64,000 nucleotides of DNA. It comes from Alphaproteobacteria bacterium (GTDB lineage Bacteria > Pseudomonadota > Alphaproteobacteria > UBA7887). The stretch covers positions 2,306,308-2,370,307 of the forward strand of contig OZ241745.1 in NCBI GenBank assembly GCA_965201115.1, in the 5' to 3' direction. The notes under the pieces are model-generated. The model searched no databases. It saw nothing but the letters and a program-made list of their open reading frames with translations, and was not told the DNA's origin. The position numbers and the translations under genes are program-made. Below are positions 5,701 through 48,071 of this stretch, piece after piece (positions within the stretch are counted from its first letter, which is position 1; each line of letters opens with the position of its first letter).

Positions 5701-6637
5701 CCGGCAACGCCAAACTCGCCAAGGGGCCGCCCCCCCGCGCGGGGGGCGCGGATTGAAACGGTGGCGCCGCGCGCCTCGAGCCGCGCCGCCGCCGGCCGCC
5801 CCCCCGCGCGGGGGGCGCGGATTGAAACGGTGGCGCCGCGCGCCTCGAGCCGCGCCGCCGCCGGCCGCCCCCCCGCGCGGGGGGCGCGGATTGAAACGCC
5901 TGCGCTTCCGGGCGGCGCCCCGCCCTGTATTGCCGCCCCCCCGCGCGGGGGGCGCGGATTGAAACCTTTTCCGCTACCATCTCGTTCATGTTAGCGGCGT
6001 GCCGCCCCCCCCCCCCCCGCGCGGGGGGCGCGGATTGAAACCATAAACGGCCTAAATGGGCGCGTGACGCGCGTCGGCCGCCCCCCCGCGCGGGGGGCGC
6101 GGATTGAAACATGAGAAAGAACAGGAAGCGAACGAATGCCAGGCGGGCCGCCCCCCCGCGCGGGGGGCGCGGATTGAAACCGTATTACCGAAGGCGCAGT
6201 TACCCACCGGCGCATGCCGCCCCCCCGCGCGGGGGGCGCGGATTGAAACCGTATTACCGAAGGCGCAGTTACCCACCGGCGCATGCCGCCCCCCCCCGCG
6301 CGGGGGGCGCGGATTGAAACTCGCCGTCGATCGCCGCGCCCTCGGCCTTCGCGGCGCGCCGCCCCCCCGCGCGGGGGGCGCGGATTGAAACAGCGCGGTC
6401 GAGGGGTACTGCCGTGTCTCGGCGCGCCGCCCCCCCGCGCGGGGGGCGCGGATTGAAACCGCGTGAAGAAAGACCGTTGGGAAGGCGCGCACCGGCCGCC
6501 CCCCCCCCCCGCGCGGGGGGCGCGGATTGAAACGAGCAGGTCGATGAAAATCTCGCCGGCGCCCAGGGCCGCCCAGGGCCGCCCAGGGCCGCCCCCCCCC
6601 CCCCCCCCGCGCGGGGGAGGGGGCACCAGCTCTAAAC
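2780..6637 (+). CRISPR. CRISPR array, about 56 repeats and about 55 spacers; repeat G(C)CGCCCCCCCGCGCGGGGGGCGCGGATTGAAAC (33-34 bp), unit 68-70 bp, degenerate terminal repeat at about 6591-6637
   Basis: Regular 68-70 bp periodicity of a conserved palindromic repeat ending GGATTGAAAC (I-C signature); spacers of heterogeneous GC; terminal repeat mutated (…gcgcgggggagggggcaccagctctaaac). Confidence 0.95.
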
Positions 6638-27339: not shown

Positions 27340-28140
27340 TTACGGCCTGGCGAGGCCCGCCGCGCGGTCGGCGAGCCGGGCGAGCAGGCGGCCTTTCGCG
27401 GCCAGCGTGAGCGCGCCGCCGCCGGGCAGCGCCGCGCTGTCGGTCAGCACGCCCGCCTCGCGCAGGAGCAGCGCGCCGATCCCCGGCGCCGCCTTCGGCT
27501 CGGCGCCGGCGAAACCGTCGAAACGCCCGGCCGCCACCCAAGCGATGTCCAGCGCCGCGCAGCCCGTCACGCGAACGGCCGCCGGGCTCGCCGCGGCCGT
27601 CAGACGCGCCTGCGAAAGTCCCTCCGGCGGCGCCAGCGCGATGACGGCGGCGTCCAGGTCGGCGGGATCGGCGCCGCGGATGCGCCGCCGGTCGACATAG
27701 GCGCCGACGCCCGCCTCGGCCCAGTAGAGCTCGTTGCGGAAGGGGTCGAACACCACGGCCGCCGCCAGCCTGACGGCGCCGTCGCCGACCCGCGCGCGCG
27801 CGCCGAGCGCCACGGCCGCATGCGGTATCCCGTGGGCCAAATTGGCCAGCCCGTCGAGCGGCGCCACCAGCCAGGCGGGGCCCCCGGGGTCGTCGTCCTC
27901 CGGCGCAAGCACGCGGTAGTCGCCCCGCGCCCGCGCGAGCTCCCTCGCGATGCCGTCCCGCACCCGCGCGGCGGCGTGGGCGGCGAACGCGCCGGCGCCT
28001 TCGCGGCTCGCGAGGAGATTCTCGATCTCGCCGAAATCGCGCTGCAACGGGCGCGACGCGCGCACCGCCGCCCGCGCCATCAGGTTCGTGAGCGCCGACC
28101 GCGCGGCCGACTGCGCAACCGCCGGGCGCATGGCGCTCAA
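27340..28140 (-). CDS. Inositol monophosphatase family protein (SuhB/CysQ-like)
   Basis: IMPase motifs (…[17 protein letters not shown]…, …[15 protein letters not shown]…), 266 aa. Confidence 0.7.
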
Positions 28141-28703
28141 TCTTTCGCGCGTTCGGCGTAGCTGCCGTCGGAGGTGTTGACCACGACGCGCGCGCCCGTC
28201 TCGATATGCGGCGGGACCATGATGCGCTCGCCGTTCTCCAGTATCGCGGGCTTGAAACTCGAAGCCGCGGTCTGCCCCTTTACCACCGGCTCGGTCTCGG
28301 CCACCGCCATCGCAACCGTATCGGCGACGCGGACGGCGATGGCCGCGTCCTCGAACGATTCGACCTCGACTTCCATGCCTTCCTGCAGGAACGCCCGCCC
28401 GGATGCGACAAGGGCCGCGTCCACATCGATCTGTTCGTAGGTCTCGCCGTCCATCAGCGTAAGCACCTCGCCGTTGGCGTAGAGATACTGGTAGCGCTTT
28501 TGCTCAAGCCACGCGCGCTCGACCGACTCGGCGGCGCGGAAGCGCTCGTTCAGCTTCGTGCCGTCGCGCAAATGCTTCAGCTCGACCTGGTTGTACGCGC
28601 CGCCCTTGCCGGGCTGCGTGGCCTGGTTGCGCACGACGCGCCACAACGCGCCCTTGTGCTCGATAACCATGCCGGGGCGGACGGCGTTGCCGTTGATCTT
28701 CAT
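28137..28703 (-). CDS. efp: Translation elongation factor P
   Basis: [24 protein letters not shown]…QPGKGGA (conserved Lys loop KGG) ; 188 aa. Confidence 0.85.
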
Positions 28704-28830: not shown

Positions 28831-31800
28831 TCAGAAGCGGACGGTCAGGGTGGCGCTGCCGGTGAAGTCGCGGTTGCCGTGGCGGGCGGCGGCGTAGTTG
28901 GCGTTGGCGCGGAGGGCCATGCGGCCGTCGGCCCATTCGTGGGCGGCGCCGAGGCCCAAGCGGGCCCATGTCGCTTCCGCTTCGGCCTTGAAGGGCGGCC
29001 TGTCCGCCGCGGTGGTTTCCATTGCGCCGGACAGTTCGCGCTCCAGGTCCAGCGTTGCGAACATGGCGCCGGCGCCGCCGGGGAGGGCGGCGGACTCGGC
29101 GCGCACGCCGGCGCGGGCGGTAATGCGCCGGCCCGCGTCAAGCGACACGCGCTCGTTCACGGAGTCCGTGAACGACGACATCTCCACCATCGACCAATCG
29201 GCGCCCGCGCGCGGGGTCAGCGTTACGCGGCCCAGCTCGAGGCGCCGCCCGATCTCCACGCCGGCAGCGTAGCCGCGGCCCGAAAGATCGCGCGCAAGCG
29301 CGCCCTCGAGCGCCGCGTCCGAATCGAGGTCGGCCTCGTACAGCGTAGCCGCGGCCTGAGCGCTCACATAGATATTCTCGGCGGGCAGCCACGCGCCCGA
29401 TATGCGGGCGCCCGTGCCGGTTATCTCGACACGGCCGCCGCCCGCCTCGGTGTCCGCGTCCGTGTCCACATCGGCGCGGCCGCGCACATGATGGACGGAG
29501 ATCGCGAACACGCCGCGTTCGCCCGCCGCGCCCTCGATCCCGGCCTCGAACCCGAAGCGGCGGTAATCGTGATGCGCCTGGGCTGTCGAGGACGCCGGAT
29601 GGCGGTCGCCGCCGGCGGCGTCGAGGCGCGCGAACGCGCCGCGCGGCGCGCCCGCCGAAGCGAAACGGTCGCCATGGGCGGGGAGCGCGTTCAGCGCCAG
29701 CAGCACCGAAGGCAGAGCTTCGTACACGCGGTGGCGCGGCGCCGGACCGACCTCGATGCGGCCGTCGGCGGTTATCCGGGGCATCGAGTCGGCGCGGCCC
29801 TCGCGCTTGAGGACGACGGCAGCGCCGCTGCTGTCGATGCGCCCGCCGCCGACGCGTTGCGCTGCCTCCTCGTCCGATTCGCCCGCGGCGGCCGTTATCG
29901 TCACCCTCTCGGCGCGGGCGACGGGCTCCTCGATGCGCCCGTTGGCGCCCACCGTCACCGCGCCGCGGGGTACGTCGACGCTTTGCACCGCGCCGTTCAC
30001 CTCGACCGCGCTGCCGGTTCCCGCCAGCGTAACCCTGCCGTCGATTTCGCCGCCGGCGCCGACCGTCACGGTCGAAGCCGCGCCGGCGTCGCGCGCCTCC
30101 ACGGCGCCCTGCACCATGCCATCGACCGTCATGCTCAGCGCGCCGGTTTCGGCCAGGACCGCAACGCGGCGGCCCTCCGCGTTCTCCGCGCCCACAAGCG
30201 CGCCGCCCGCGGCAACCTCGACCGCGCCGCCGGCGGGAACATGCAACATGCCTTCCGCATCCCCGCCCACGGCGATGAACTCGACGCCACGGACATTCCC
30301 CCTGAACTCCGCGCCGGACGCCACCGTCAGACGGTGCATGCCCCCGCCGCCGCCGATGACGTCGCCCGTCAGCGCGTTCGCGACCGCAACCGTCAGCGCC
30401 CCGGGGCCCAGGTCCTCGATATTGCCCACGACATTGCCGTTCACCGTCACCGTCAGGTCGCCGGACGCGCTGCGCACCGCCGCCCGCCCGTCGAGGTTCG
30501 ATAGCCGCCCCCCGGCGTTTACCGCGACCGTTCCGCCGCGGTCGAACAGCACGCTCCGGGCGGAGCCATCGACCGTCACCGCGCTGGCGGCCAGATGGAT
30601 GAGACCCTCGACCGAGCCGCCGGACTTCACATGAACGTCATGCTCGCCGCCGCCGCGGCCGAATATCCCGCCCTCGACCTTGCCGCTCACATCTACTTTC
30701 AGATCGCCGTCGCCCTCGCCGCGAATGTCGCCCGTCACGGTCGCCCGCGCCGCAACGTCCACCGTCAGGTCGCCCGCCGCGCCGCGGATCGCCTCGGTCG
30801 TTCCATCGCTCTCGACGCCTGTTACCGAGCCGCCGCTGGCGACCGTTACCGAACCGCCATTGTCGTAGAGCACCCGCCCAACGCGGCCCGCAATCGTCAT
30901 CGCGCTTGCCGGAAGATGCACCGTGCCCGTCACCGCGCCGCCGGCCATCACCGCAACCGTGTGCGAACCCGCGCCCATGCCGCGAATGCCGCCGGTCACC
31001 GTGCCCGTCACCGTCGCCGTCAAATCCCCCGCGCCGCGCTCCTCGATGTCGCCCGTCACGCGGCCCGCAACCGTCGCGGTCAAGTCGCCCGCGCCGCGCT
31101 CCTCGATGTCGCCCGTCATGCGGCCCGCGACCGACGCGACCAGGTCGCCGGCATCCAGATCCACGATATCGCCCGTCACCATGCCGCCGGACGCGACCGT
31201 GACTTCGTGCTTGCCGGCGCCCTTGCCGTGGATGGCGCCCGTCACCGCGCCGCTCACATTCACGGTCATGGCCCCCGCGCCGCGCCCCTCGATGCGGCCC
31301 GTCACCATGCCGCCGGACGCAACCGTGACATCGAGAGCGCCCGCGTCGGCGCGAATCGCCTCGCCGCCGATGCCGGCGATGCGGCCCGTCGCCGCAACCA
31401 TCAGCGCGCCGCCGTTGTCGAACAGAACGCGCCCCGCAGCGCCGCGGATCGTCGTCCCGCTCTTCGGGTTATGCACCGTGCCCAACACCCGCGCCTTCTC
31501 CGCGATCTCGACGGTATGCACGCCGCCGCCGCGACCGAAGATCTCCCCGTTAATCGTTCCGGTCTCCGACACCGTAACCGTCAGGTCGCCATCGCCGCGC
31601 GCCTCGATATTGCCCGCGACCATGCCGTGAACAGTCACCGCCAAATTGCCCGCGTCGCCGCGGATCGCCTCCTTCGTTCCGTCGATATCGAGGCCCGTAA
31701 TCTCGCCGCTGGCGTTGACCGTTACCGCGCCTCCGTTGTCGTAGTGGACGCGCCCGACATCGCCCGAGACCGTCAGCGCCGCGCCCGCGGGCAGGCGGAC

Positions 31801-34800
31801 CGTTCCGGCAACGGCGCCCGAGGACGCCACCGTAACCGTGTGTTCGCCGGCGCCTTCGCCGACAACGCCGCCCGTCACCGTTCCGGCGACCGAAACCTCC
31901 AGATCGCCCGCGCCGCGCTCGGCGATGTCGCCTGTTACCGCGCCGGCGACGTCGACCTCGAGATCGCCGGCGCCGCGGCCCTCGACGAGGCCCGTGACCG
32001 CGCCATTGGCCATAACCGTGACGTCGAGATCGCCCGCGTCGGCGCGAATCGCCTCGGTCGTTCCATCGTTATCGACGCCCGTGACGGCGCCGCCGCCGGC
32101 GACCGTCACCGTTCCGCCGTCGGCGTAGAGAATGCGCCCGACGCTGCCGCCCACGGTCATCGCCGCGGGGTTGCGTATCGTGCCCGTCACCGCGCCGCCG
32201 GCCTCGACGGTCGCCATCAGCGTCCCGCCCGACTCGATGTCGCCCTCGACGCGCCCTTCGTCCCGGACCGTGACCGTCAGCGCGCCCATCGTGCTCTCGG
32301 CGGCTGTGCCTTCGACGCCGGTCAGTTTCCCGCCGCCGGCGACCGTTACCATCCCGCCCGAGGCATACAGAACGCGCCCGACGCTGCCCGAAAACGTGAA
32401 CGACGCTTGCGGGTTGTGTATCGTGCCCGTCACGACGCCGCCGGCCTCGACGGTCGCCGTCAGCGTCCCGCCCGACTCGACGTCGCCCTCGACGCGGCCT
32501 TCGTCGTTCACCGTGACGGTCAGCGCGCCGGCCGTGCTCTCGGCGGCTGTGCCTTCGACGCCGGTCAACTTCCCGCCGCCGGACACCGTCACCGTCCCGC
32601 CCGAGGCGTAGAGAACGCGCCCGATACTCGCCCCGCTCCCGACCGTGAACGACGCCTGCGGGTCCCGTATCGTCCCCGTCACGACGCCGCCGGCCTCGAC
32701 GGTCGCCGTCAGCGTCCCGCCCGATTTGACATCGCCCTCGACGCGGATCCCGTCGTTCACCGTGACCGTCAGCGCGCCGGCCGTGCTCTCGATGGCCACG
32801 CCCTCGACGCCGGTCAGCGTCCCGCTCCCGGACACCGTCACCGTCCCGCCGCTGGCGTAAAGAATGCGCCCGATGCTGCCCGCGACCGCAAGCGCGGTCT
32901 GCGGGTCGTGTATCGTGCCCGTCACAACGCCGCCGGCCATGACATTCGCCGTCAACGAGCCGCCGCCATCGACGCGGATATCGCCCGTCACTGTTCCCGA
33001 AACGGTCGCCGTCAGAGCTCCGCCGCCGTCGCCGAGGATGGCGACGCCCGACGCCGCGCCCACTTCGCCGCCCGCGCCCACGGTCACCGCGCCGCCGCCG
33101 AACAGATGCACGCCCGCGCCGGTTCCGCCCATCGCGGCGCCGTGTACCGTCACCGTCTGATTGCGCACGCCCGCCGTGACGCCCGCGCCGCGGACATAAA
33201 TGCCCTTCGCCCCGCCCGTCACACGCGCGCCCGCGGAAACCGTGACCGCGATGGCGCCGTTGCTGTCGTGCGGAACGACGTAAAGCGCCTCCACGCCGTT
33301 CCCCTCGGCGTCGATGGCGCCGCCGGTCACGTCCACATGGATGTCGCCGGCGTTGTAGGTCAGCGCGTGTTGCCGGACCGTGTTCTTCCACGCGGCGTCG
33401 TAGTCGGCGTCGGGAAGGGCGGTCAGCGCCGTCGTCAGTCCGCTGCTGTCGCCCGACAACACGGCTGTCAGCGCCGCGCGCTCCGCGGCCGAGAGAGCAT
33501 CGCCGGCGCGGACACGATCGGCGATCGCCGTGTGGGACAGCGCCATGGCGCGGACGCCGGCGCGCGACAGACCCAGTATTTCCTCCGCCGCCGCGTGCGC
33601 CAGCGGGCCGTCGCCGGTCGGCGCGGCGGTCGCCGCGGCGCGCTTGCGCCGGAGATCCTCCGCTGCCGCCTTCCACGCGGCGTCGTAGTCGTCGGCCGGA
33701 AGCGCCGCCAGCGCCGTCGTCAGCGCGGCCGAATCGTTATCCGTTATCGCCGCAAGCACAGCCTGTTCCGCCGCCGACAGCGTCTCGTCGGCGCCCGCGA
33801 TCCGGCCCCGGATGAAAGCCTCCCTCACCGGCGCGCCCACCGTGACCGTTCCGCTCGACGTAACGTGGATCATGGGCATGGTCCGCGCCGCGTCGTCCGC
33901 TGTTGTCGCGCCCACGCCCATCGTGTGGCCGCTCGACCGCCGCGCCCAGGCGACAACGCCGGCCTCCGGCGCCTCGACCGCGCCCGCATGCGTCACAAGG
34001 ATGCGCCCCGCCGCGCTGTCGTCGTTCGTAAGCCGCCCCTCCATGCCGATGGCGAACGGCGCCGCGACTTCCGCCGCCGCGCCCGTCGTCATCTCGATGG
34101 AGCCGAGGCCGTCATGGCGTACCCAGAGACCCCGCGCGTTCAGGCCTTCCGCGGAGACGGCGCCGCCCGTCATCTCGACGGAGCCCTTTCCGGGCGACCC
34201 CGACTTGTAAACATGCAGCCCGTTGGCGTTGTCGCCCGCCGTCTCGACCGAGCCCCCCGTCATGCGCGCGGAGGCGGAGCCGCTCCCCCCGCTGCGCTCG
34301 GCGTAAACCCCGTGGGAATGGATGATATTGACATAGCTCCCGCCCCGCGTGCGGATCGCGCCGCCTTCCATGACGACGGCCACGTTCGAGACGCCCGCCC
34401 CCCGATATCCGGACCAGCCCCTGAGACCTATGGCCCCCGCCCCCGTCGTCTCGATCAGGCCGTCGGTCATGGTAACCGTGACGTCGCCCTGCCCTCTCTC
34501 GGAGCCGGAGACGCCGTAGGCGCTGTGGCCCTCTGTCTTGACGACGGTGTCGCTGCCCGAGAGGGTGACGGCAACGGCGCCCGTCGAGGAGGCGTTGCTC
34601 CGCGCGCCGGCGACGCCCGCGGAGGAGGCTCCTTTCGTCGAGACGGAGCCGCTCACGCTAACGGTTACGTTGCCCGTCCCGGCGTGGGCGCCGCTGACGC
34701 CGGTGGCGCTCGCCCCCTGCGTCGCGATGGAGCCGCCGCTCATGCTGACGGTTATGTTGCCCGACGCGCCGGAGGCGATGGAAGCCGTCAAGCCGCTACC

Positions 34801-35259
34801 GTCTCCCCCCTGGCTCGAGAGGGAGCCGCCGGTCATGTAGATGCCGATGTCGCCCGCCCCGGCGAGGCGGTTGACATAAAGGAGACGGGAGCTCGGCTCC
34901 CTCGTCTCGACGGAGCCGCCGCTCATGCGGATGATCGCGCTTCCGGTCCCGCGGCGCTGGATCCGCAGGCCCTCCGCCTGGTCCCCCAAGGTTACGACCC
35001 TGCCGGCCGTCATGCGAATCTCGGCGTTGCCGGAACCGTCGTGATCGACCCTGATGCCCCGGTTGTTGGCGGTGTAACCGGTAATGTTGACGCTACCCGG
35101 GTCGACGAGGATGTCGGCCGCGCTACTGCCGCCTTCGATGCAGACGATGATCCCGCCGCCGGTGTGCGGCCCGCCGCGGCACACGTTCTGCGCCGCCGCC
35201 TCCCCGGCTCCCAGCGCGAGCGCAAGCAGCAGCCCCGCCGCAAACGCCCGCGCGCTCAC
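28831..35259 (-). CDS. Giant autotransporter (type Va secretion) with glycine-rich, internally repetitive passenger and C-terminal beta-barrel ending …LTVRF
   Basis: 2142 aa; signal peptide (MSARAFAAGLLLALALGAGEAAAQ); tandem about 65-70-aa passenger repeats (…GGTVTVSG.GKLTGVEGTAAEST.GALTVTV.DEGRVEGD.ESGGTL.ATVEAGG.VTGTI…); C-terminal autotransporter barrel with terminal Phe. Confidence 0.8.
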   Translation of the reverse strand: MSARAFAAGLLLALALGAGEAAAQNVCRGGPHTGGGIIVCIEGGSSAADILVDPGSVNITGYTANNRGIRVDHDGSGNAEIRMTAGRVVTLGDQAEGLRIQRRGTGSAIIRMSGGSVETREPSSRLLYVNRLAGAGDIGIYMTGGSLSSQGGDGSGLTASIASGASGNITVSMSGGSIATQGASATGVSGAHAGTGNVTVSVSGSVSTKGASSAGVAGARSNASSTGAVAVTLSGSDTVVKTEGHSAYGVSGSERGQGDVTVTMTDGLIETTGAGAIGLRGWSGYRGAGVSNVAVVMEGGAIRTRGGSYVNIIHSHGVYAERSGGSGSASARMTGGSVETAGDNANGLHVYKSGSPGKGSVEMTGGAVSAEGLNARGLWVRHDGLGSIEMTTGAAAEVAAPFAIGMEGRLTNDDSAAGRILVTHAGAVEAPEAGVVAWARRSSGHTMGVGATTADDAARTMPMIHVTSSGTVTVGAPVREAFIRGRIAGADETLSAAEQAVLAAITDNDSAALTTALAALPADDYDAAWKAAAEDLRRKRAAATAAPTGDGPLAHAAAEEILGLSRAGVRAMALSHTAIADRVRAGDALSAAERAALTAVLSGDSSGLTTALTALPDADYDAAWKNTVRQHALTYNAGDIHVDVTGGAIDAEGNGVEALYVVPHDSNGAIAVTVSAGARVTGGAKGIYVRGAGVTAGVRNQTVTVHGAAMGGTGAGVHLFGGGAVTVGAGGEVGAASGVAILGDGGGALTATVSGTVTGDIRVDGGGSLTANVMAGGVVTGTIHDPQTALAVAGSIGRILYASGGTVTVSGSGTLTGVEGVAIESTAGALTVTVNDGIRVEGDVKSGGTLTATVEAGGVVTGTIRDPQASFTVGSGASIGRVLYASGGTVTVSGGGKLTGVEGTAAESTAGALTVTVNDEGRVEGDVESGGTLTATVEAGGVVTGTIHNPQASFTFSGSVGRVLYASGGMVTVAGGGKLTGVEGTAAESTMGALTVTVRDEGRVEGDIESGGTLMATVEAGGAVTGTIRNPAAMTVGGSVGRILYADGGTVTVAGGGAVTGVDNDGTTEAIRADAGDLDVTVMANGAVTGLVEGRGAGDLEVDVAGAVTGDIAERGAGDLEVSVAGTVTGGVVGEGAGEHTVTVASSGAVAGTVRLPAGAALTVSGDVGRVHYDNGGAVTVNASGEITGLDIDGTKEAIRGDAGNLAVTVHGMVAGNIEARGDGDLTVTVSETGTINGEIFGRGGGVHTVEIAEKARVLGTVHNPKSGTTIRGAAGRVLFDNGGALMVAATGRIAGIGGEAIRADAGALDVTVASGGMVTGRIEGRGAGAMTVNVSGAVTGAIHGKGAGKHEVTVASGGMVTGDIVDLDAGDLVASVAGRMTGDIEERGAGDLTATVAGRVTGDIEERGAGDLTATVTGTVTGGIRGMGAGSHTVAVMAGGAVTGTVHLPASAMTIAGRVGRVLYDNGGSVTVASGGSVTGVESDGTTEAIRGAAGDLTVDVAARATVTGDIRGEGDGDLKVDVSGKVEGGIFGRGGGEHDVHVKSGGSVEGLIHLAASAVTVDGSARSVLFDRGGTVAVNAGGRLSNLDGRAAVRSASGDLTVTVNGNVVGNIEDLGPGALTVAVANALTGDVIGGGGGMHRLTVASGAEFRGNVRGVEFIAVGGDAEGMLHVPAGGAVEVAAGGALVGAENAEGRRVAVLAETGALSMTVDGMVQGAVEARDAGAASTVTVGAGGEIDGRVTLAGTGSAVEVNGAVQSVDVPRGAVTVGANGRIEEPVARAERVTITAAAGESDEEAAQRVGGGRIDSSGAAVVLKREGRADSMPRITADGRIEVGPAPRHRVYEALPSVLLALNALPAHGDRFASAGAPRGAFARLDAAGGDRHPASSTAQAHHDYRRFGFEAGIEGAAGERGVFAISVHHVRGRADVDTDADTEAGGGRVEITGTGARISGAWLPAENIYVSAQAAATLYEADLDSDAALEGALARDLSGRGYAAGVEIGRRLELGRVTLTPRAGADWSMVEMSSFTDSVNERVSLDAGRRITARAGVRAESAALPGGAGAMFATLDLERELSGAMETTAADRPPFKAEAEATWARLGLGAAHEWADGRMALRANANYAAARHGNRDFTGSATLTVRF

Positions 35260-35280
35260 GCCGCGCTCCCCGGCTGCCGC

Positions 35281-35303
35281 GGGGGGGGGGGGGGGGGGGG
35301 GGG
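35281..35303. repeat. Homopolymeric G23 tract (poly-C in sense orientation) 21 nt upstream of autotransporter-1 start codon
   Basis: 23 consecutive G between promoter-like region (TTGCCG…CAAATAAACGTA) and SD GGGGAG/GTG start of the minus-strand gene. Confidence 0.9.
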
Positions 35304-35439
35304 TACGTTTATTTGCACGGCAAGCGCGGGCGCAAACCCTCGGTACGGACGGGGCATTGTCATGACGGAGCGCTCCTCGGCGGAAATGGGTACCACGCGG
35401 ATGTCGTCAATATACCACACACGGCGCGCGGGCGCAAAC

Positions 35440-35950
35440 GCCTCGGGGCGGGGGGCGATGACCGCGACTCTCCCCGGCGGGATCGCGGCGCGCGGGAACG
35501 TGCGGGCTGGAAGCCCGCGGTCCCGGGCCCCGCCTTCGGCGGGGTTGCGCCTCCCCCGGCGGCATCGCGGCGGGCGGAAACGTGCGGGCGAGACGCCCGC
35601 GCACCCAAGAAGCTCGCGCGGGCGCCGTTGCGGGGCATTGCGGGGATCCGCGGGGCTCGGGGCTGTCGAGACGCCCGCAGTCCCGGGAAGCGCGCGCCGC
35701 CCGCAAACGCGCCGCAGGCGCTGACCGCCCGGGTGCGCGGGCGTCTCGCCCGCACGTCTCGACAGTTTCGATCGTTGGCGGGAGGGGCGTAACGACTGCG
35801 CCCTTCCCGGCAATGCCGCGGCGCGCGAGAACGTGCGGGCAGGATGCCCGCGGTCCCGGGCCCCGCCTTCGGCGGGGTTGCGCCTTCCCCGGCGGGCGCC
35901 GCGCGGGTCGCCAACGTGCGGGCGAGACGCCCGCGCACCCAGGAAGCGCG
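35440..35950. repeat. Cluster of REP-like dual-hairpin intergenic repeats
   Basis: Recurring units …GGGAACGTGCGGGCAGGATGCCCGCGGTCCCGGGCCCCGCCTTCGGCGGGG… (hairpins GCGGGCA-gga-TGCCCGC and CCCCGCC-ttc-GGCGGGG) and variant GCGGGCG-aga-CGCCCGC. Confidence 0.8.
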
Positions 35951-35953
35951 CGG

Positions 35954-37069
35954 TCAGTGGCGGCGGGCGATCTCCTCCGCGCGCGCCAGCAGCGCGTCGC
36001 CGCTCGCGCACACGATCACCGCATCGCCGACCTCCTCGAGCCGGTCCGGATCGTCCACGCCCGCTACCGCCGCCGCCAGACGCGAAGCCGCCTCCGCCCC
36101 GAACTTGCGGCCCGCCTGCCGCGCCAGAAGCGCACGCTCGCGCTCAAGGCCGCGCGCCCGTTCGCGCGATGCGCCTCGCTCAAGACCACGCGCCTCGCCA
36201 AGCTCAAGCCCACGCGCCTCGCCAAGCGCTTCGCTGCGCTCCGCGCGCTCGGCAAGCAAACTGTCGAGCCGTTCCGCAAACAACGATTCCATGGCCCCCA
36301 AATCCTCCAAATCCCCGACCCGCCTCAAACGCGCAGCCAGCGCGCCGTCCGAAGCCCCGAACCGGTTCGCCTCGAGCATGTGCCGAAGCGTCGCCCCGAA
36401 CGCGCGGCGCAAACTCGCATGCTCCGGACCCGAAAGCAACCGACGCAACGCCGCGACAACCGCCGGCACAGACTCCGGATCCCCGTGCTCAAGCGCAAAA
36501 CGCGCCGACACAACGTTGCCCGCGGGCAAATCCTCCGGACGCAGACGATGAACATCGAGCAGCAGGTAACCCTGCCGGGGCTGAAAACGCTCCAGCGCAG
36601 CCCCCGCCGGCGCTATCTCGTCGCGAACCTCCCGCGACGCAGACCAACGCGCACGCCCGTTGTAAACGACAATCGGCAAGACCGGCGGAAGCGGACCCGC
36701 GCGCCGGTTCTTCCGGTCGTCCCGGCGAAGCCGCGAATACAACTGAGCCGTGTACGCATACACGCGCACCGCCATGTCCAGGTCGACCTGCGACTGAAAC
36801 TCCAGCATGACCAGCAGATACACCCAGCCGGTCGTGCCGTCGGCGGCGCGGTAGCGCAGCCGCCACACGCGGTCGCCCCGCGTCTGCCGCAGATCCTCGT
36901 CCACGTACTCCGCCGGCGCCGGTTCGAGGCTGGCGAGGTCGAGGCGGGAGACATCGAACTCCGGGCCCAGCGCCTGCCGCATGAACCCCCCGAGCAGGTC
37001 GGCGACCGCCCGCTCATGCTCGAAAAACAGTTTAAAGCTTGCATCGTGTATCTCGCGCATGGCGGTCAT
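35954..37069 (-). CDS. Rpn/YhgA-like recombination-promoting nuclease / putative transposase (PDDEXK_7 with C-terminal DUF4351-like tail)
   Basis: 371 aa; N-terminal …DASFKLFFEHERAVADLLGGF… typical of Rpn family; D/E-rich core (…VWRLRYRAADGTTGWVYLLVMLEFQSQVD…). Confidence 0.65.
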   Translation of the reverse strand: MTAMREIHDASFKLFFEHERAVADLLGGFMRQALGPEFDVSRLDLASLEPAPAEYVDEDLRQTRGDRVWRLRYRAADGTTGWVYLLVMLEFQSQVDLDMAVRVYAYTAQLYSRLRRDDRKNRRAGPLPPVLPIVVYNGRARWSASREVRDEIAPAGAALERFQPRQGYLLLDVHRLRPEDLPAGNVVSARFALEHGDPESVPAVVAALRRLLSGPEHASLRRAFGATLRHMLEANRFGASDGALAARLRRVGDLEDLGAMESLFAERLDSLLAERAERSEALGEARGLELGEARGLERGASRERARGLERERALLARQAGRKFGAEAASRLAAAVAGVDDPDRLEEVGDAVIVCASGDALLARAEEIARRH

Positions 37070-37292: not shown

Positions 37293-40200
37293 TCAGAAGC
37301 GCACGGTGAGTGCGGCGCTGCCGCTGAAGTCGCGGTTGCCGTGGCGGGCGGCGGCGTAGGCGGCGTTGGCGCGGAGGGCTATGCGGCCGTCGGCCCATTC
37401 GTGGGCGGCGCCGAGGCCGAGGCGCGCCCATGTCGCTTCCGCTTCGGTCTCGAAGGGGCGGTCTGCCGCTGTTGTTTCCATCGCGCCGGACAGTTCGCGC
37501 TCCAGGTCCAGCGTTGCGAACATGGCGCCGGCGCCGCCGGGGAGGGCGTCGGACTCGGCGCGCACGCCGGCGCGGGCCGTTATGCGCCGGCCCGCGTCAA
37601 GCGATACGCGCTCGTTCACGGAGTCCGTGAACGACGACATCTCCACCATCGACCAATCGGCGCCCGCGCGCGGGGTCAGCGTCACGCGGCCCAAGTCGAG
37701 GCGCCGCCCGATCTCCACGCCGGCGGCGTAGCCGCGGCCCGAAAGATCCCGCGCAAGGGCGCCCTCGAGCGCCACGTCCGAATCGAGGTCGGTCTCGTAA
37801 AGCGTCGCCGACGCCTGACCGCTCACATAGACGTTCTCCGCCGGCAGCCACGCGCCCGACAGGCGGGCGCCCGTGCCGGTTATCTCGACACGGCCGCCGC
37901 CCGCCTCCGCATCCATCTCCGCGTCTGTCTCCACATCGGCGCGCCCGCGCACATGATGAACGGAGACCGCGAACACGCCGCGTTCGCCCGCCGCGCCCTC
38001 GAACCCCGCCTCGAACCCGAAGCGGCGGTAGTCGTGATGCGCCTGCGCGGTCGAGGAGGCCGGATGGCGGTCGCCGCCGCCAGCGTCGAGGTGCGCGAAC
38101 GCGCCGCGCGGCGCGCCCGCGGCGGCGAAGCGGTCGCCGTGGGCGGGCAGCGCGTTCAGCGCCAGCAGCACCGAAGGCAGTGCCTCGTACACGCGGTGCC
38201 GCGCCGCCGGCCCGACCTCGATACGGCCATCGGCGGTTATCCGAACCTGCGAATCGACACGGCCCTCGCGCTTGAGGGTAATCGTGGCGCCTGCGGCGTC
38301 GATGCGACCGCCGCCGACGCGCAGCGCCGCCTCCTCGTCGGTTTCGCCCGCGGCCGCACGTATCGTTACCGTCTCGGCGCCGATGACGGGGTCCTCGATG
38401 CGCCCGTTCTCGCCCACCGTCACCGCGCCGCGGGGCACATCGACGCTCTGCGCCGCGCCATCGACCGTGATCTTGCTGTCGGCGCCCGCCAGCGTGACCT
38501 TGCCGTCGATTTCGCCGCCGGCGCCGACCTTCACGGTCGAAGCCGCGCCGGCGTCGCGCGCCTCGACGGCGCCCTGCACCGCGCCATCGACTGTCATGTC
38601 CAGGGCGCCGGTTTCGGCGACGACCGCCACGCGGCGGCCTTGCGCGTCCTCCGCGCCCACGAGCATGCCGTCCGCGGGGACCGTCACCTCGTTGCCCGCG
38701 GGCACATCCAGCGTTCCCTCCGCGCGCCCGGCCACGAGTATGGACTCCACGCCCTCGACATTTCCCTTGAAGACGCCGCCGGGCTGCACCGTCAGCCGAT
38801 GCATGCCTCCGCCGCCGCCGATGACGTCGCCCGTCAGCTCGTTCGCAACCGTAACCGCGAGGTTTCCGGGGCCGGTGTCGGAGACGCTGCCCATGACGAC
38901 GCCGTTCACCGTCACCGTCAGGTCATCGGCCGCGCTGTAAACCGCGCGGCCGTCGAGGCCCGTTATCCGTCCTTCGGAACCGACCTCGACCGCGCCGCCG
39001 CGATCGAACCGGATGCTCCGTGCGGAGCCGTCGACCGTCACCGTGCTGGCGGCCAAGTGGATGAGACCCTCGACCGAGCCGCCGGATTTCACATGAACGT
39101 CGTGCTCGCCGCCGCCGAGGCCGAATATCCGGCCCTCGACCTTGCCGCTCACATCCACCTTCAAATCGCCATCGCCCGCGCCGCGAATGTCTCCCGTTAC
39201 GGTCCCCATCGCCGCCACGTCCACCGTCAGATCGCCCGCCGCGCTGCGGATCGCCTCCCGCACCCCATCGGTCTCGACGCCGGCAATGGTCCCCGACGCC
39301 GCGATGGTTACCGAACCGCCATTGTCGTACAGCACGCGCGCCGCGCGGCCCGCGACCGTCGCCGCGTGCGAACCCGCGCCGACGCCGCGGATGGCGCCCG
39401 CAACCGAACCCCCGGACGCAACCGTAACCCGGTGCATGCCCGCGCCCATGCCGCGGATATCGCCGGCAACCGAGCCCGCAACCGTTACCGTCAGGTCACC
39501 CGCGCCGCGCTCCTCGACGGCGCCCGCAACCGAACCGCCGGACGCAATCGCGACCCGATGCGCGCCGGCGCCCATGCCGCGGATATCGCCGGAAACCGCG
39601 CCCGCAACCGTTACCGTCAGGTCGCCCGCGCCGCGCTCCTCGATCGAACCCGTCACCGAACCCGCAACCGTCGCGACCAGGTCGCCCGCGTCCATATCGA
39701 CAATGTTACCCGTCACCGAGCCGCCGGAGGCGACCGTAACCTCGTGCCTGCCGGCGCCCTTGCCGAGGATGGCGCCCGTTACCTTGCCGCCCGCGTTCAC
39801 GGTCATGCCGCCCGCGCCGCGCTCCTCGATGACGCCCGCGACGGCGCCGCCGGACGCGATCGCCACCGTCAGGTCTCCCGCGTCGGAACGGATCGCTTCC
39901 CGGACGCCCTCTATCTCGAGACCGGCAATCCGGCCCCGCGCGCCGACCTTCACGGCGCCGCCACGGTCCAGCAACACGCGCCCGGCCGCGCCGTGCTCCA
40001 CATCCACCTCGCTCGCCGCCAGGCGCACCGTTCCCGTGACCATGCCGCCGCCGCGCACCGCGACCGTGTGTTCGCCGGCGCCGAGACCCAGTATGTCGCC
40101 CTCGACCGTGCCGGTTACCGTCGCCGCCAGAGCGCCGCCGCGGCTCTCCACATTTCCGGTCGCCTCGCCGGCGACCGTAACCTCCAGGTCGCCCGCGGCG

Positions 40201-42950
40201 CTGCGGATCGCCTCGCCGCCGATGCCCGAGACGCGCCCGCTCGCGGCGATGGTCAGCGCGCCGCCGTTGTCGAACAGAACGCGCCCGACGGCGCCGCTTA
40301 TGGTTGTCCCGCGCTTCGGGTTATGCACCGTGCCTGCAACCGTCGCCTTCTCCGCGATTTCGATGGTGTGCGTCCCGCCGCCGCGGCCGAATATCTCCCC
40401 CATAATCGTCCCGGTTTCCGACACCGTGACCGTCAGATCGCCGTCGCCGCGCGCTTCGATATTGCCCGTCACCTCGCCGTGAACGGTGACCGTCAAATCC
40501 CCCGCGTCGCCGCGGATCGCCTCCCGCGCGCCCTCGATTTCGACGCCCGTAATCTCGCCGTTCGCATTGACCGTGACGGCGCCGCCGTTGTCGTAATAAA
40601 TGCGTCCGACCTTGCCCGCGACGGTCATCGCGCCTGTCGGCAAACGCACCGTCCCCGTGACGGCGCCCGCGGATTCTATCGCGACCGTGTGCTCGCCGGC
40701 GTCCTCGCCGCGAATATCGCCGGCGACCGTGTTCGACACCGTGACGTCCAGGTTGCCGGCGCCGCGTTCGGCAATGTCGCCCGTTACCTCGCCGGAAACC
40801 GCGACTTTCAGATTGCCGGCGCCGCGGCCCTCGATGTTTCCCGCAACCTCGCCGTCGGCGGCCACCGTGACGGTCAAATCCCCCGCGCCGGCGCGGATCG
40901 CTTCCCGCGTTCCCTCGATTTCGACGCCCGTAATCCGGCCGCCGCCGGCGACCGTTACCGTTCCGCCGTTGTCGTAGAGTATGCGCCCGATGCGCACCTC
41001 GTCCGCAACCGCGAACGGGCTCCGGGGGTTGTGTATCGTGCCTGTAACCGCGCCGCCGGACATGATATTCGCCGTCAGCGCGCCGGCGTCGACGATGCGG
41101 ATATCGCCTTCGATCCTGCCTCCGCTCTCCACCGTGACGGCGAGATCGGTTTCCGGCGCTTCGTAGTCTTCGCCGGGTTCCGCGGGCGGCGCGTATCCGG
41201 CCTCGATCGCCAAGCCCGAGCCTGCCTTGACGACGCCCGTGCGGCCGACCGTTACGGCGCCGCCGCGCCGCATCCGGATGGCGGCGTCCCGCGCGCTCGC
41301 GCCGATCGTCTCGACGGTTCCGTTCACGATTACGCGGTCCTCCACGCCGGCGCCGGCGGGGGGCCCAGTTATCACGATGGCGTGCATTACGGGTTCGAGG
41401 AGGTTCGCGGTCGTGGTCTCGCCGTCGGCGCCGGGCCGCTCCGCCTCGACGGTCCGCCACCCATAGACATGCGTCGGGTATATGTACCGGTTTCCGTTGG
41501 CGCCGAGCTGTTCTTGCGTAATCGCGCCGTTTTCGTAGTCCTCTTCCGTCAGCGCCTGGGCGCGCACGGTTGCGCCCTCGGCCACCCGGACGGTAAACGC
41601 GGCGCCGGCGGTTCGCGGCAGGGCGTAGATGGCGGTACCGCCGCGGGTCTCCACCGATCCGCCCGTGACGTCGACGATGTGCCCTTCGATCGTGTCGGTC
41701 GTTTCGGGATCGTCGGTCAGATCGTTCGCCGCGTTGAGTACCTGCGCGTCGATGGCGAGGCCCTGCACGGTCGCTATCGTGCCCGACGACACGACGCGGA
41801 CGCGGCCCAAGCCGGAGTTCCGGGCGTTGATGCCCGAGCCCTGCCGGGTGCTCCAGGTCGGGCTGCGCCGGACCGCGGCCCGGATCGTGCCGCCGGCGTT
41901 GACGATGACGTCGCCCGACTGATAGGTGTCGCCGTCGGCGTCGGGGGCCGAGTCCCTGGCGAAATTGCTGCCGGGAAGAAGCCACGCCCAGATGGCCCTG
42001 CCGCCCTCGGCGGAGACGTCGAGCAGCGATCCCGGTCTGAGGTCGATGACGATATCGCCGTCCTCGCCATTCTGCTCGACATACATGCCGTTGCCGCCCG
42101 CCGACCCCTCGACGTTCCGGACGATGCTGTTAGCTCCCATTACGATATTGACGTCGAAATTCTTTCTTCCCTCGGAGATGGGGACGTAATCGGTCAGATG
42201 GACCCATATCGCGGAGCCGTTGCCGGCCCAATGGCCGATGCTCCCGCCGAACCGGGGGTTGAGATCGACGTTGCCGTTAAGCGTGAGCGCTATGGGCGCC
42301 CACCCGCTGCCGCTCATATGGATGCCGCTGTGGGAGTTCGTGGCCTCCCTCGCGGACGAGTAGTACAGCTCGGTACCGTCGGATGGGCGATTCGGGTCGT
42401 CCGCCGGCCAATACGACGGCGTCCGGCTGAACTCGATCGTGGCGCCCTCCTCGACGATCAAGGTCGGGCCGCCGTGCGTCTTCAACTTGAGAGCGCCGTC
42501 GACCCAGAAGCCGCGCATGTCGGCGAGGCCGGTCGCCGCGATCCTGACGCCCGTCTTGACGGTGATTTCCACATTGTTCTCACGGGTGTTTTCGCCCACT
42601 ATCTGATCGGCGGGATCCGTGTAGTAGGTTCCCCGGCGATGGTCCCAGTACCTCACGCCGTTCCGCGTGCGCCCGCCTCCGTACTGGTCCCAGTGGACGG
42701 CTCCCCAGTCGGCCTCGCCCGCCGGCTTGTTCGCCCTCGCGGCGCAGACCGCGGCGGTTGTGTACTGCTGGTTATGCGGGCTTCGCAGGCCATAGCCCGC
42801 GCGCACGTCCGGGGCTGTCATGGCGCATATTACGGGGGCCTGAAACGGCGCCAGCTGCGCCTGCGCCGGGGCGGCGAACATCGCCAGGCCGACCGCGCAG
42901 AAGACGGCGGCGGCGCGCATCGCGGTTCCGGGGAAGCTCCGTGCGATCAT
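37293..42950 (-). CDS. Second giant autotransporter paralog, with C-terminal beta-barrel about 90% identical to the first
   Basis: Start taken at ATG 42950 (MIARSFPGTAMRAAAVFCAVGLAMFAAPAQA signal peptide; SD GAGGA); alternative in-frame ATGs 42962/43049/42920; same passenger repeat family and near-identical last about 350 aa. Confidence 0.8.
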   Translation of the reverse strand: MIARSFPGTAMRAAAVFCAVGLAMFAAPAQAQLAPFQAPVICAMTAPDVRAGYGLRSPHNQQYTTAAVCAARANKPAGEADWGAVHWDQYGGGRTRNGVRYWDHRRGTYYTDPADQIVGENTRENNVEITVKTGVRIAATGLADMRGFWVDGALKLKTHGGPTLIVEEGATIEFSRTPSYWPADDPNRPSDGTELYYSSAREATNSHSGIHMSGSGWAPIALTLNGNVDLNPRFGGSIGHWAGNGSAIWVHLTDYVPISEGRKNFDVNIVMGANSIVRNVEGSAGGNGMYVEQNGEDGDIVIDLRPGSLLDVSAEGGRAIWAWLLPGSNFARDSAPDADGDTYQSGDVIVNAGGTIRAAVRRSPTWSTRQGSGINARNSGLGRVRVVSSGTIATVQGLAIDAQVLNAANDLTDDPETTDTIEGHIVDVTGGSVETRGGTAIYALPRTAGAAFTVRVAEGATVRAQALTEEDYENGAITQEQLGANGNRYIYPTHVYGWRTVEAERPGADGETTTANLLEPVMHAIVITGPPAGAGVEDRVIVNGTVETIGASARDAAIRMRRGGAVTVGRTGVVKAGSGLAIEAGYAPPAEPGEDYEAPETDLAVTVESGGRIEGDIRIVDAGALTANIMSGGAVTGTIHNPRSPFAVADEVRIGRILYDNGGTVTVAGGGRITGVEIEGTREAIRAGAGDLTVTVAADGEVAGNIEGRGAGNLKVAVSGEVTGDIAERGAGNLDVTVSNTVAGDIRGEDAGEHTVAIESAGAVTGTVRLPTGAMTVAGKVGRIYYDNGGAVTVNANGEITGVEIEGAREAIRGDAGDLTVTVHGEVTGNIEARGDGDLTVTVSETGTIMGEIFGRGGGTHTIEIAEKATVAGTVHNPKRGTTISGAVGRVLFDNGGALTIAASGRVSGIGGEAIRSAAGDLEVTVAGEATGNVESRGGALAATVTGTVEGDILGLGAGEHTVAVRGGGMVTGTVRLAASEVDVEHGAAGRVLLDRGGAVKVGARGRIAGLEIEGVREAIRSDAGDLTVAIASGGAVAGVIEERGAGGMTVNAGGKVTGAILGKGAGRHEVTVASGGSVTGNIVDMDAGDLVATVAGSVTGSIEERGAGDLTVTVAGAVSGDIRGMGAGAHRVAIASGGSVAGAVEERGAGDLTVTVAGSVAGDIRGMGAGMHRVTVASGGSVAGAIRGVGAGSHAATVAGRAARVLYDNGGSVTIAASGTIAGVETDGVREAIRSAAGDLTVDVAAMGTVTGDIRGAGDGDLKVDVSGKVEGRIFGLGGGEHDVHVKSGGSVEGLIHLAASTVTVDGSARSIRFDRGGAVEVGSEGRITGLDGRAVYSAADDLTVTVNGVVMGSVSDTGPGNLAVTVANELTGDVIGGGGGMHRLTVQPGGVFKGNVEGVESILVAGRAEGTLDVPAGNEVTVPADGMLVGAEDAQGRRVAVVAETGALDMTVDGAVQGAVEARDAGAASTVKVGAGGEIDGKVTLAGADSKITVDGAAQSVDVPRGAVTVGENGRIEDPVIGAETVTIRAAAGETDEEAALRVGGGRIDAAGATITLKREGRVDSQVRITADGRIEVGPAARHRVYEALPSVLLALNALPAHGDRFAAAGAPRGAFAHLDAGGGDRHPASSTAQAHHDYRRFGFEAGFEGAAGERGVFAVSVHHVRGRADVETDAEMDAEAGGGRVEITGTGARLSGAWLPAENVYVSGQASATLYETDLDSDVALEGALARDLSGRGYAAGVEIGRRLDLGRVTLTPRAGADWSMVEMSSFTDSVNERVSLDAGRRITARAGVRAESDALPGGAGAMFATLDLERELSGAMETTAADRPFETEAEATWARLGLGAAHEWADGRIALRANAAYAAARHGNRDFSGSAALTVRF

Positions 42951-42988
42951 GGTTGTCCTCATGGGGTCGGGGCGCGCCGGCCTGCCGC

Positions 42989-43005
42989 GGGGGGGGGGGG
43001 GGGGG
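42989..43005. repeat. Homopolymeric G17 tract (poly-C in sense) upstream of autotransporter-2, with flanks conserved relative to tract 1 (CAAAT(A/T)AACGTA-Cn-GCGGCAG)
   Basis: 17 consecutive G; flanking motif shared with 35281-35303 tract. Confidence 0.9.
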
Positions 43006-43119
43006 TACGTTAATTTGCCCGCCGCCGCCGCGGGCAGGCGCAAACCCATTGCGTGGAACGGGTATCGTCATGACGGGGCCCTCCTGGGCGGGAACGGACA
43101 ACGCGCGGATGCCGCGAGC

Positions 43120-43860
43120 GGCGGGATGGTACGCCATGCCGCGCGCGGGGGGCAACCGTTTTGTGCGGGGGGACTCGCGGCGGCTTCCTGGGCGCGCGGG
43201 CGGGGCGGCGGGGATCCGCGGGGCTCTGCGGGGCTCGCGCGGCCTGGCGCTCGCGTTTTCCTGCCGACGCCGCGGTGGGCGGGGACGTGCGGGCAGGATG
43301 CCCGCGGTCCCGGGCCCCGCCTTCGGCGGGGTTGCGCGGTGGCGGGAAACGGCGCGCCCTCCCCGCCGACGCCGCGGCGGGTGGGAACGTGCGGGCGGGG
43401 ACGCCCGCGCACCCAGGAAGTTCGCGCCTTCGGCGCGGGTGGGGCGGCGGGGATCCGCGGGGCTCTGCGGGGCTCGCGCGGTTGCGGGGCTCTGCGGCCT
43501 GGCGCTCGCGGCTTCCTGCCGACGCTGCGGTGGGCGGGAATGTGCGGGCAGGATGCCCGCGGTCCCGGGCCCCGCCTTCGGCGGGGTTGCGCGGTGGCGG
43601 GCAACGGCGCGCCCTCCCCGCCGACGCCGCGGCGGGCGGGAACGTGCGGGCGGGGACGCCCGCGCACCCAGGAAGTTCGCGCCTTCGGCGCGGGTGGGGC
43701 GGCGGGGATCCGCGGGGCTCTGCGGGGCTCGCGCGGTTGCGGAGCTCTCGGCCTGGCGCTCGCGGCTTCCTGCCGACGCTGCGGTGGGCGGGAACGTGCG
43801 GGCAGGATGCCCGCGGTCCCGGGCCCCGCCTTCGGCGGGGGTGCGAATCGGCGGGCGGTC
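43120..43860. repeat. REP-like repeat array including about 2.6 tandem copies of an about 240-bp composite unit (about 43210-43850)
   Basis: Unit GGATCCGCGGGGCTCTGCGGGGCTCGCGCGG…GTGCGGGCAGGATGCCCGCGGTCCCGGGCCCCGCCTTCGGCGGGG…GTGCGGGCGGGGACGCCCGCGCACCCAGGAAGTTCGCGCCTTCGGCGCGGG recurs with period about 240 bp. Confidence 0.8.
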
Positions 43861-45149: not shown

Positions 45150-45615
45150 TCGGCCCGCCGCGCCGCGCGCGGGCAAAACCCCCACCGCCGGTCCGCCGGT
45201 CACGGGACCGAGTATATACCGGCGCGCGGGGATCCGCAACGCGCCTTCCGGGCGCGCAGGCGCGGCGCGGAAACGTGCGGGCGGGGACGGGGCGGGCGCC
45301 CAGGAAGCGCGCCGCGCACTCCCCGCAAACGCCGCGCTGCTTGCCGACGTGCGGGCAGGATGCCCGCGGTCCCGGGCCCCGCCTTCGGCGGGGCAAGCAT
45401 TTCGGTACAGACACCGAGGGCGCGCCGCCATGCGCTTCCTCGCTAACGCCGCGCCGCACGGGAACGTGCGGGCGAGACGCCCGGGCGCCCAGGAAGCGCG
45501 CCGCGCACTCCCCGCAAACGCCGCGCTGCTTGCCGACGTGCGGACAGGATGCCCGCGGTCCCGGGCCCCGCCTTCGGCGGGGCAAGCATTTCGGTACAGA
45601 CACCGAGGGCGCGGT
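45150..45615. repeat. Four tandem/nearby copies of REP-like dual-hairpin repeat (two subtypes alternating)
   Basis: …GCGGGCAGGATGCCCGCGGTCCCGGGCCCCGCCTTCGGCGGGGCAAGCATTTCGGTACAGACAC… twice, interleaved with …GTGCGGGCGGGGACGGGGCGGGCGCCCAGGAAGCGCGCCGCGCACTCCCCGCAAACGCCGCG… units. Confidence 0.8.
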
Positions 45616-48049: not shown

Positions 48050-48071
48050 CCCCCCCCCCCCCCCCCCCCCC
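48050..48071. repeat. Homopolymeric C22 tract 48 nt upstream of Sel1-repeat lipoprotein start
   Basis: 22 consecutive C on the coding strand between REP element and RBS (GGAG) of gene at 48120. Confidence 0.9.

Follow-up and report, generated by a model that had tools for sequence, protein, structure and literature searches.

The window analyzed here, a 64,000-nucleotide stretch of DNA, contains two genes for giant autotransporters. Gene 1 (28831-35259, minus strand) begins at a GTG at 35259 and encodes a 2142-aa protein with a Sec-type signal peptide (MSARAFAAGLLLALALGAGEAAAQ) and a C-terminal beta-barrel, and its ORF displays high third-position G+C, as do the real genes of the window. When the C-terminal 500 aa were used as the query, they matched the autotransporter beta-domain PF03797 (E 3.5e-27), a match that was missed by a scan with the full-length protein; gene 1 is therefore an autotransporter, as had been proposed for this 2142-aa ORF from the sequence alone. 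Gene 2 (37293-42962, minus strand) starts either at ATG 42962 (ATGAGG) or at an in-frame ATG at 42950 with the Shine-Dalgarno (SD) sequence GAGGA, and it matches the same domain (E 3.8e-27). Both genes have the make-up of classical (Type Va) autotransporters, with signal peptides read from the sequence. Over their last ~550 residues, the two proteins share more than 90% identity, suggestive of gene conversion. Situated between the two genes is an Rpn/YhgA-like (Transposase_31) gene (35954-37069, minus strand), and REP-like hairpin repeats (...GGGAACGTGCGGGC...GCCCGCGGTCCCGGGCCCCGCCTTCGGCGGGG) are present between and around the autotransporter genes at 35480-35950, 43227-43845 and 45260-45613.

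Upstream of gene 1 lies an uninterrupted tract of 23 cytosines in the sense direction (35281-35303, minus strand; G23 on the plus strand), followed by 21 nt (35260-35280) and then the GTG; the gene's own SD (GGGGAG, 35266-35271, minus strand) is found 6 nt before this start codon. In these respects the sequence-only reading, which had reported 23 identical bases 21 nt upstream of the GTG and a retained GGGGAG, proved exact. It had also considered a 23-mer to be far beyond chance in a 70% GC genome, and the numbers agree: given a base composition of 70.4% G+C (G = 0.345, C = 0.359), about 3e-6 runs of at least 23 bases are expected per 64 kb, as calculated from the base counts of the window. 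G23 is thereby far longer than composition predicts, one of the properties of a simple sequence repeat (SSR) contingency locus. The histogram of G runs in the window holds nothing between 8 and 17, followed by 23, with G17 and G23 as the sole G runs longer than 8. Elsewhere in the window, long C or G runs comprise this G17, a C22 tract and expanded C7 runs of CRISPR repeats, and every long tract outside the CRISPR array is located at the 5' end of a gene whose product is exported or belongs to the surface. The C22 tract (48050-48071, plus strand) precedes the ATG (48120) of a gene for a Sel1-repeat lipoprotein by 48 nt; since it is not accompanied by a leader ORF of the kind described below, it would represent a different, possibly transcriptional, repeat arrangement. 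The CRISPR array (2780-6620) consists of ~54 repeats (GCCGCCCCCCCGCGCGGGGGGCGCGGATTGAAAC), with one duplicated spacer (6147-6320), and the C7 of its last repeats has expanded to C14 (6005), C9 (6289), C12 (6499) and C17 (6592). C-runs therefore grow in places where no switch is expected, suggesting a general tendency of this genome towards C-run expansion.

The C23 tract is part of a short leader ORF (35256-35363, minus strand) of 35 codons (MTMPRPYRGFAPALAVQINVPPPPPPPPRQPGSAA), which opens at ATG 35363, 9 nt downstream of an SD of its own (GAGGAG, 35373-35378, minus strand), and closes at a TGA (35258-35256). The encoded peptide consists of MTMPRPYRGFAPALAVQINV, eight prolines that derive from the C-run (CCC codons 21-28) and RQPGSAA, and its TGA overlaps the start codon of the autotransporter as GTGA. 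The paralogous gene 2 has a homologous leader ORF (42772-43071, minus strand), in which an SD (AGGAGG, 43085-43080) is followed after 8 nt by ATG 43071 and by MTIPVPRNGFAPARGGGGQINV and polyproline, the latter encoded by a second tract, C17 in sense (42989-43005, minus strand; G17 on the plus strand). The SD, the ATG and the core of the peptide (M-T-x-P-x-P..GFAPA..QINV) are common to both leaders. Between them, five third positions have changed synonymously, and one 6-nt indel leaves the frame intact; the peptide is too short to be tested decisively for coding selection. The DNA of leader 1 is also ~95% identical to the leader of a relative from another genome (L003).

Because the repeat unit is a single base, the length of the tract determines the frame in which the leader continues. 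In a simulation of gene 1, tracts of C20, C23 and C26 give leaders of 34 to 36 codons that stop at the GTGA overlap, C21 and C24 fuse the leader in frame with the autotransporter, and at C22 and C25 the leader overruns by 79 codons out of frame. For gene 2, the assembled C17 lets the leader overrun by 99 codons, out of frame and across the autotransporter start; at C18 it would stop at a TGA overlapping ATG 42962, and at C16 or C19 it would be fused in frame. With gene 1 at C23 in the overlap-stop configuration and gene 2 at C17 in the overrun configuration, the two paralogues are in different states in this assembly. A non-triplet repeat unit at a place relevant to expression is a further property of SSR contingency loci that is found here, where we infer that the leader is translated.

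Relatives of these genes were found in a narrow set of sources. A query with the N-terminal 500 aa of gene 1 returned 12 proteins (32-53% identity), all from ENA long-read metagenome assemblies and several of them opening with an in-frame fused leader, for example P0002 (MTMPRPYRGFAPVLAVQINVPPPPPPREGRGMSARAL...). A profile scan of species-representative genomes added 17 loci, located in complete chromosomes of MAGs whose labels read Alpha- or Gammaproteobacteria, Nitrospirales or simply 'bacterium', and the N-terminus of gene 2 retrieved two further loci, one of them from a different project. Exact-pattern scans for a QINV-type leader followed by a C-run gave zero matches in genome contigs and metagenome contigs, and a protein-profile scan of metagenome contigs gave no relatives; ENA long-read assemblies and MAG chromosomes derived from those were the only sources in which the family was observed. 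In one of the two gene 2 homologues (L023), a G47 run (4953-4999) abuts the ATG, on a contig of 5x coverage where it may be an artefact; in the other (L024), from the different project, a C24 tract (4962-4985) lies 15 nt before an ATGAGA start, and the autotransporter gene has been inserted between infC and rpmI-rplT. Autotransporter segments of several loci (L008, L013, L015, L022 and others) are 90-95% identical at the nucleotide level across complete MAGs labelled Alphaproteobacteria, Gammaproteobacteria and Nitrospirales, which points either to recent horizontal transfer among lineages of the same project or to unreliable labels.

The position of the tract is conserved, and its length is not. 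A tract just upstream of the signal-peptide start is present at 15 of the 17 gene 1-type poly-C loci as well as at both genes of the window, and the 19 poly-C loci, which comprise those of the two window genes and those on contigs of related uncultured high-GC MAGs and metagenomes, share one layout: an SD, a start codon, a short ORF, poly-C, 12-38 nt and the main start. Their tract lengths are C9, 11, 12, 12, 13, 14, 16, 16, 17, 17, 17, 18, 19, 23, 23, 25, 27, 30 and 32. The leader peptides fall into at least four types (MT.P.P..GFAP..QINV, MERPTLRL, MKRPTSP..HPSIR and MQNVRPIP). An SD-led start that remains open up to the tract was found for 18 of the 19 tracts, as compared to 10% of random positions in the same sequences, and under strict criteria for 16 of 19, as compared to 1.8% of random anchors; as the 19 loci are related, these enrichments do not represent 19 independent trials. 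In several pairs of loci, the flanks are 91-95% identical and the tracts are up to 14 bases apart. Gene 1 and L003, for instance, share ~95% identity over the upstream region and the leader, with tracts of C23 and C17, respectively. Length polymorphism between conserved flanks, another mark of SSR contingency loci, therefore spans C9 to C32 in this family, in pairs that are not from the same species.

The junction between leader and autotransporter is conserved in a similar manner. At every locus with a leader ORF, the main start has the form xTGA, with AGC, AGG, AAT or AGT as the second codon (ATC at the alternative ATG 42950 of gene 2), so that the amino acid at codon 2 changes without loss of the overlapping stop. 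Most of the homologous main starts are preceded by a conserved GGAG-type SD. Among 21 loci with a leader plus a repeat, the leader is fused in 11, stops at the xTGA in six, stops 10 nt before the start (in the SD region) in two and overruns in two. The tract lengths derive from long-read assemblies, some with 2-6x coverage, and may be off by a base or more, which makes the called states soft; with this reservation, the excess of fused states over random across the 21 loci was not significant (P = 0.056). For the leader type that occurs most often, each of the three frames leads either to fusion or to termination beside the start, and a clean OFF state is therefore not evident.

Several natural variants illustrate what the parts of this arrangement can do. 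One homologue (L009a) has a decayed tract, C6TC5, and GCG in place of the internal start, and its leader ATG opens an intact ORF of 1631 aa with a typical end (...SLSMRF), indicating that the N-terminally extended form is a viable full-length gene. At another locus (L017), a tandem downstream copy that has neither leader nor tract retains the same SD and the GAGGAGCGCGTCATGAGC (ATGAGC) start, indicating that the main start can work alone. In more distant homologues (L019 and L020, ~40% identity), the frame of an SD-led leader extends across copies of an 8-nt repeat at the 5' end of the autotransporter gene, 11 x CCTCACCG (5829-5916) in L019 and 13 x ACTCACCG (5819-5922) in L020; the latter leader is fused in frame, and the former ends at a TGA overlapping ATGAGG. 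Upstream of a further homologous gene (L013), there are 12 copies of the 13-nt repeat TTACGTTTCTCTC (5687-5842). Finally, a G16 tract (5788-5803) in L021 is placed exactly between TTGAC and TATGCT and constitutes a classic promoter spacer. The occurrence of differing repeat types at one place within one gene family is a hallmark of contingency loci.

We consider it very probable that the tract functions as a hypermutable repeat in one way or another. Slipped-strand phase variation, which the sequence-only reading had put forward, is well supported by comparison insofar as lengths of C9-C32 between flanks of 91-95% identity argue for a hypermutable repeat; the part of that proposal that is not supported is the mechanism, which had been sought in the promoter or 5'-UTR, while the tract in fact resides within a leader ORF with an SD, the stop codon of which overlaps the start of the autotransporter. 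Given this location and the stop/start overlap, a change in length most likely acts on frame and translation rather than on promoter spacing.

As the best explanation, one that we favor with somewhat better than even confidence, we propose a frame-based translational switch that operates through the leader ORF. Slipped-strand gain or loss of C's would shift the reading frame of the leader downstream of the tract. At C21 or C24, this would yield a pre-protein with a polyproline-containing N-terminal extension of the signal peptide. At C20, C23 or C26, including the assembled state of gene 1, the leader would stop at the GTGA, a layout typical of termination-reinitiation coupling. At C22 or C25, the out-of-frame overrun across the start site should interfere with initiation. 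This model presumes translation of the leader, a tract length that is variable among members of the population, and amounts or forms of the autotransporter that differ between the three configurations, all of which we infer from sequence. The switch may set the level or the form of the protein rather than turn it on and off, and with an SD of its own the autotransporter may be translated irrespective of the state of the leader. Slippage on CCC-C runs, be it of RNA polymerase or of the ribosome (+1), could mix the frames. The fused N-termini resemble the extended signal peptide region (ESPR, PF13018) in layout only, in that an extension is followed by a classical signal peptide; a search of these N-termini gave no Pfam match at E <= 1, and this candidate was dropped.

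One alternative is a non-mutational attenuator, which we regard as unlikely. The leader would then sense polyproline synthesis, an EF-P- or prolyl-tRNA-dependent stall would mask the main start or else shield the C-rich RNA from Rho and thereby tune expression downstream, and variation in tract length would be incidental. Runs of eight or more prolines stall ribosomes, EF-P rescues polyproline-stalled ribosomes, and unstructured C-rich RNA is the classic loading substrate for Rho. Consistent with such a device, the poly-C tract encodes a proline run in every leader and in any register, it ends 12-38 nt from the main start and so within or near the footprint of a ribosome at the SD, and folding predicts that it is unpaired in both leader RNAs. 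The gene for elongation factor P itself, efp (28137-28703, minus strand), follows gene 1 on the same strand at a distance of 127 nt. However, efp has its own promoter-like site (TTGCGT-17-TAAAAT) and no EF-P gene is found near any of the 24 related loci; we therefore treat the adjacency as coincidence and rejected it as a functional link. The tracts are furthermore pure C, whereas selection for proline alone would allow mixed CCG and CCC codons, the 8-nt repeats that occupy the same place in L019 and L020 encode no polyproline, and the 9-32 length range with its non-triplet differences bears the signature of slippage. Both leaders contain a proline run, and their RNAs show no structure above that of shuffled sequences. 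A short upstream ORF with consecutive proline codons, mgtP of the Salmonella mgtCBR leader, reportedly influences the translation or transcription of its downstream gene. Systems of this type differ from the present case in that they rely on alternative stem-loops, physiological signals and a fixed sequence, as opposed to a length-variable homopolymer with no RNA structure signal; related work exists on mgtQ (PMC8092293). A physiological layer involving EF-P, proline or Rho may nevertheless act on top of the switch.

A transcriptional switch, in which the length of a tract located in the promoter or 5'-UTR would alter the geometry of the promoter or the fate of the mRNA, appears to us improbable at gene 1. 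Precedents for this type of control exist: the fim2 and fim3 promoters of Bordetella contain C12-C22 tracts (PMC1891110), and the transcribed 5'-UTR repeats of Haemophilus influenzae hmw are processed by RNase III and act through RNA structure (PMC12721329). The G16 spacer of L021 and the leaderless C22 tract before the Sel1-repeat gene likewise favor it, and L021 does carry a promoter-spacer homopolymer of the kind known from Bordetella fim and Neisseria porA and opc. The gene 1 tract, in contrast, is embedded in a conserved SD-led ORF, and sigma-70 scans around both tracts yielded no hexamer pair flanking them. The TTGCCG...CAAATAAACGTA element, which had been taken as promoter-like, corresponds to codons 14-20 of leader ORF 1, and since TTGCCG is only 2 nt away from CAAATA, a 16-18 nt spacer is not possible and the two cannot form a -35/-10 pair. 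The sole weak candidate pair that flanks the tract, TTGCGC-17-ATAAAC, has a spacer of 17 nt in gene 1 and 23 nt in gene 2, which means that the 6-nt leader indel would alter any promoter spacing there. By eye, a possible promoter can be discerned further upstream (35409-35437, minus strand), with TTGCGC (35437-35432), 17 nt and TGgTATATT (-10 at 35414-35409); conservation of this region extends to L003 and in part to gene 2, and the sigma-70 scan did not call it. If real, this promoter would place the tract ~105 nt into the transcript. The hmw mechanism is based on structure, whereas both leader RNAs fold no more stably than shuffled sequences (z-scores of +0.8 and +0.2), and a scan of the whole window at the gathering threshold detected no Rfam RNA family; a riboswitch or hairpin mechanism was dropped for its lack of folding above shuffled sequences.

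The weakest alternative, which we consider very unlikely, is that the tracts are functionless by-products of a genome prone to C-run expansion, as the CRISPR repeats might suggest, or that long-read assembly has mis-sized homopolymers, the related contigs being low-coverage long-read assemblies with many frameshifted genes; against it, tracts recur at one position in at least 20 loci from three samples and two contig-naming styles, within a conserved layout of leader and xTGA, repeats of other types take that place in distant homologues, and the long tracts of the window outside the CRISPR array are confined to the 5' ends of genes with surface-located or exported products.

A frame-based switch through the leader ORF has relatives among well-characterized phase-variable systems. 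In logic, the nearest of these is lic1 (licA) of H. influenzae, where CAAT repeats are found just downstream of alternative start codons (PMC2992063). As in the present case, a non-triplet repeat is placed at the extreme translated 5' end, start codons lie upstream of it, repeat number picks the frame and more than two outcomes are possible. Unlike the leaders described here, licA lacks both a stop/start overlap and a separate SD and start codon beyond the repeat, its repeat is a tetramer and its product is cytoplasmic. With respect to the type of protein, comparable examples are the phase-variable autotransporters NalP and MspA (PMC3723659) and AutA and AutB (PMC5118866) of Neisseria and Lav of Haemophilus (PMC9022572), all of them Type V autotransporters with frame-acting simple-sequence repeats. 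In these proteins, the repeat is within the autotransporter ORF and no leader ORF or termination-reinitiation layout has been described, and their producers are human mucosal pathogens as opposed to the uncultured high-GC MAG lineages studied here. Regarding the repeat itself, there is a likeness to Bordetella, a high-GC Gram-negative genus in which C or G tracts of 9-22 nt on surface and autotransporter genes are polymorphic between relatives and where fimX, bapC and tcfA, in addition to fim2 and fim3, are phase-variable through homopolymers (PMC1891110). The fim tract is located in the promoter and the bapC and tcfA tracts in the coding sequence proper, whereas here the tract, which is also longer with up to C32, is located in a separate SD-led leader whose stop overlaps the autotransporter start. 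In the literature searched, three features of the present arrangement were not found described: a leader ORF distinct from the gene, an SD and start codon of the gene's own beyond the repeat, and conservation of the overlapping stop. Given that repeat-driven switching of autotransporters is known, we regard the arrangement as a variant rather than as a new principle.

It is tempting to extend this view to a portable cassette that sits before autotransporter genes of the related uncultured high-GC MAG lineages and comprises an SD-led leader, a non-triplet repeat (poly-C or 8-mers) and a stop overlapping the start. Such a cassette would act as a three-state translational switch, polyproline stalling and CCC-C slippage may add a physiological input, and it would apparently have been exchanged between MAGs labelled as different classes or phyla. 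We put this broader proposal forward tentatively and consider it more doubtful than the switch at gene 1.

There is also a practical aspect to these observations. Gene callers assign differing starts to these genes depending on the length of the tract, and long-read homopolymer miscalls will flip the apparent state. Phase variation has been documented mainly in cultured pathogens, and the unusually long tracts (C17-C32) described here belong to genes for giant autotransporters of uncultured high-GC bacteria, for which long-read metagenomes are the only source. Fluctuating selection may thus act on the surface adhesins of such bacteria. The combination of a leader, a repeat and an overlapping stop and start would provide them with a distinct route from repeat length to three translational outcomes.
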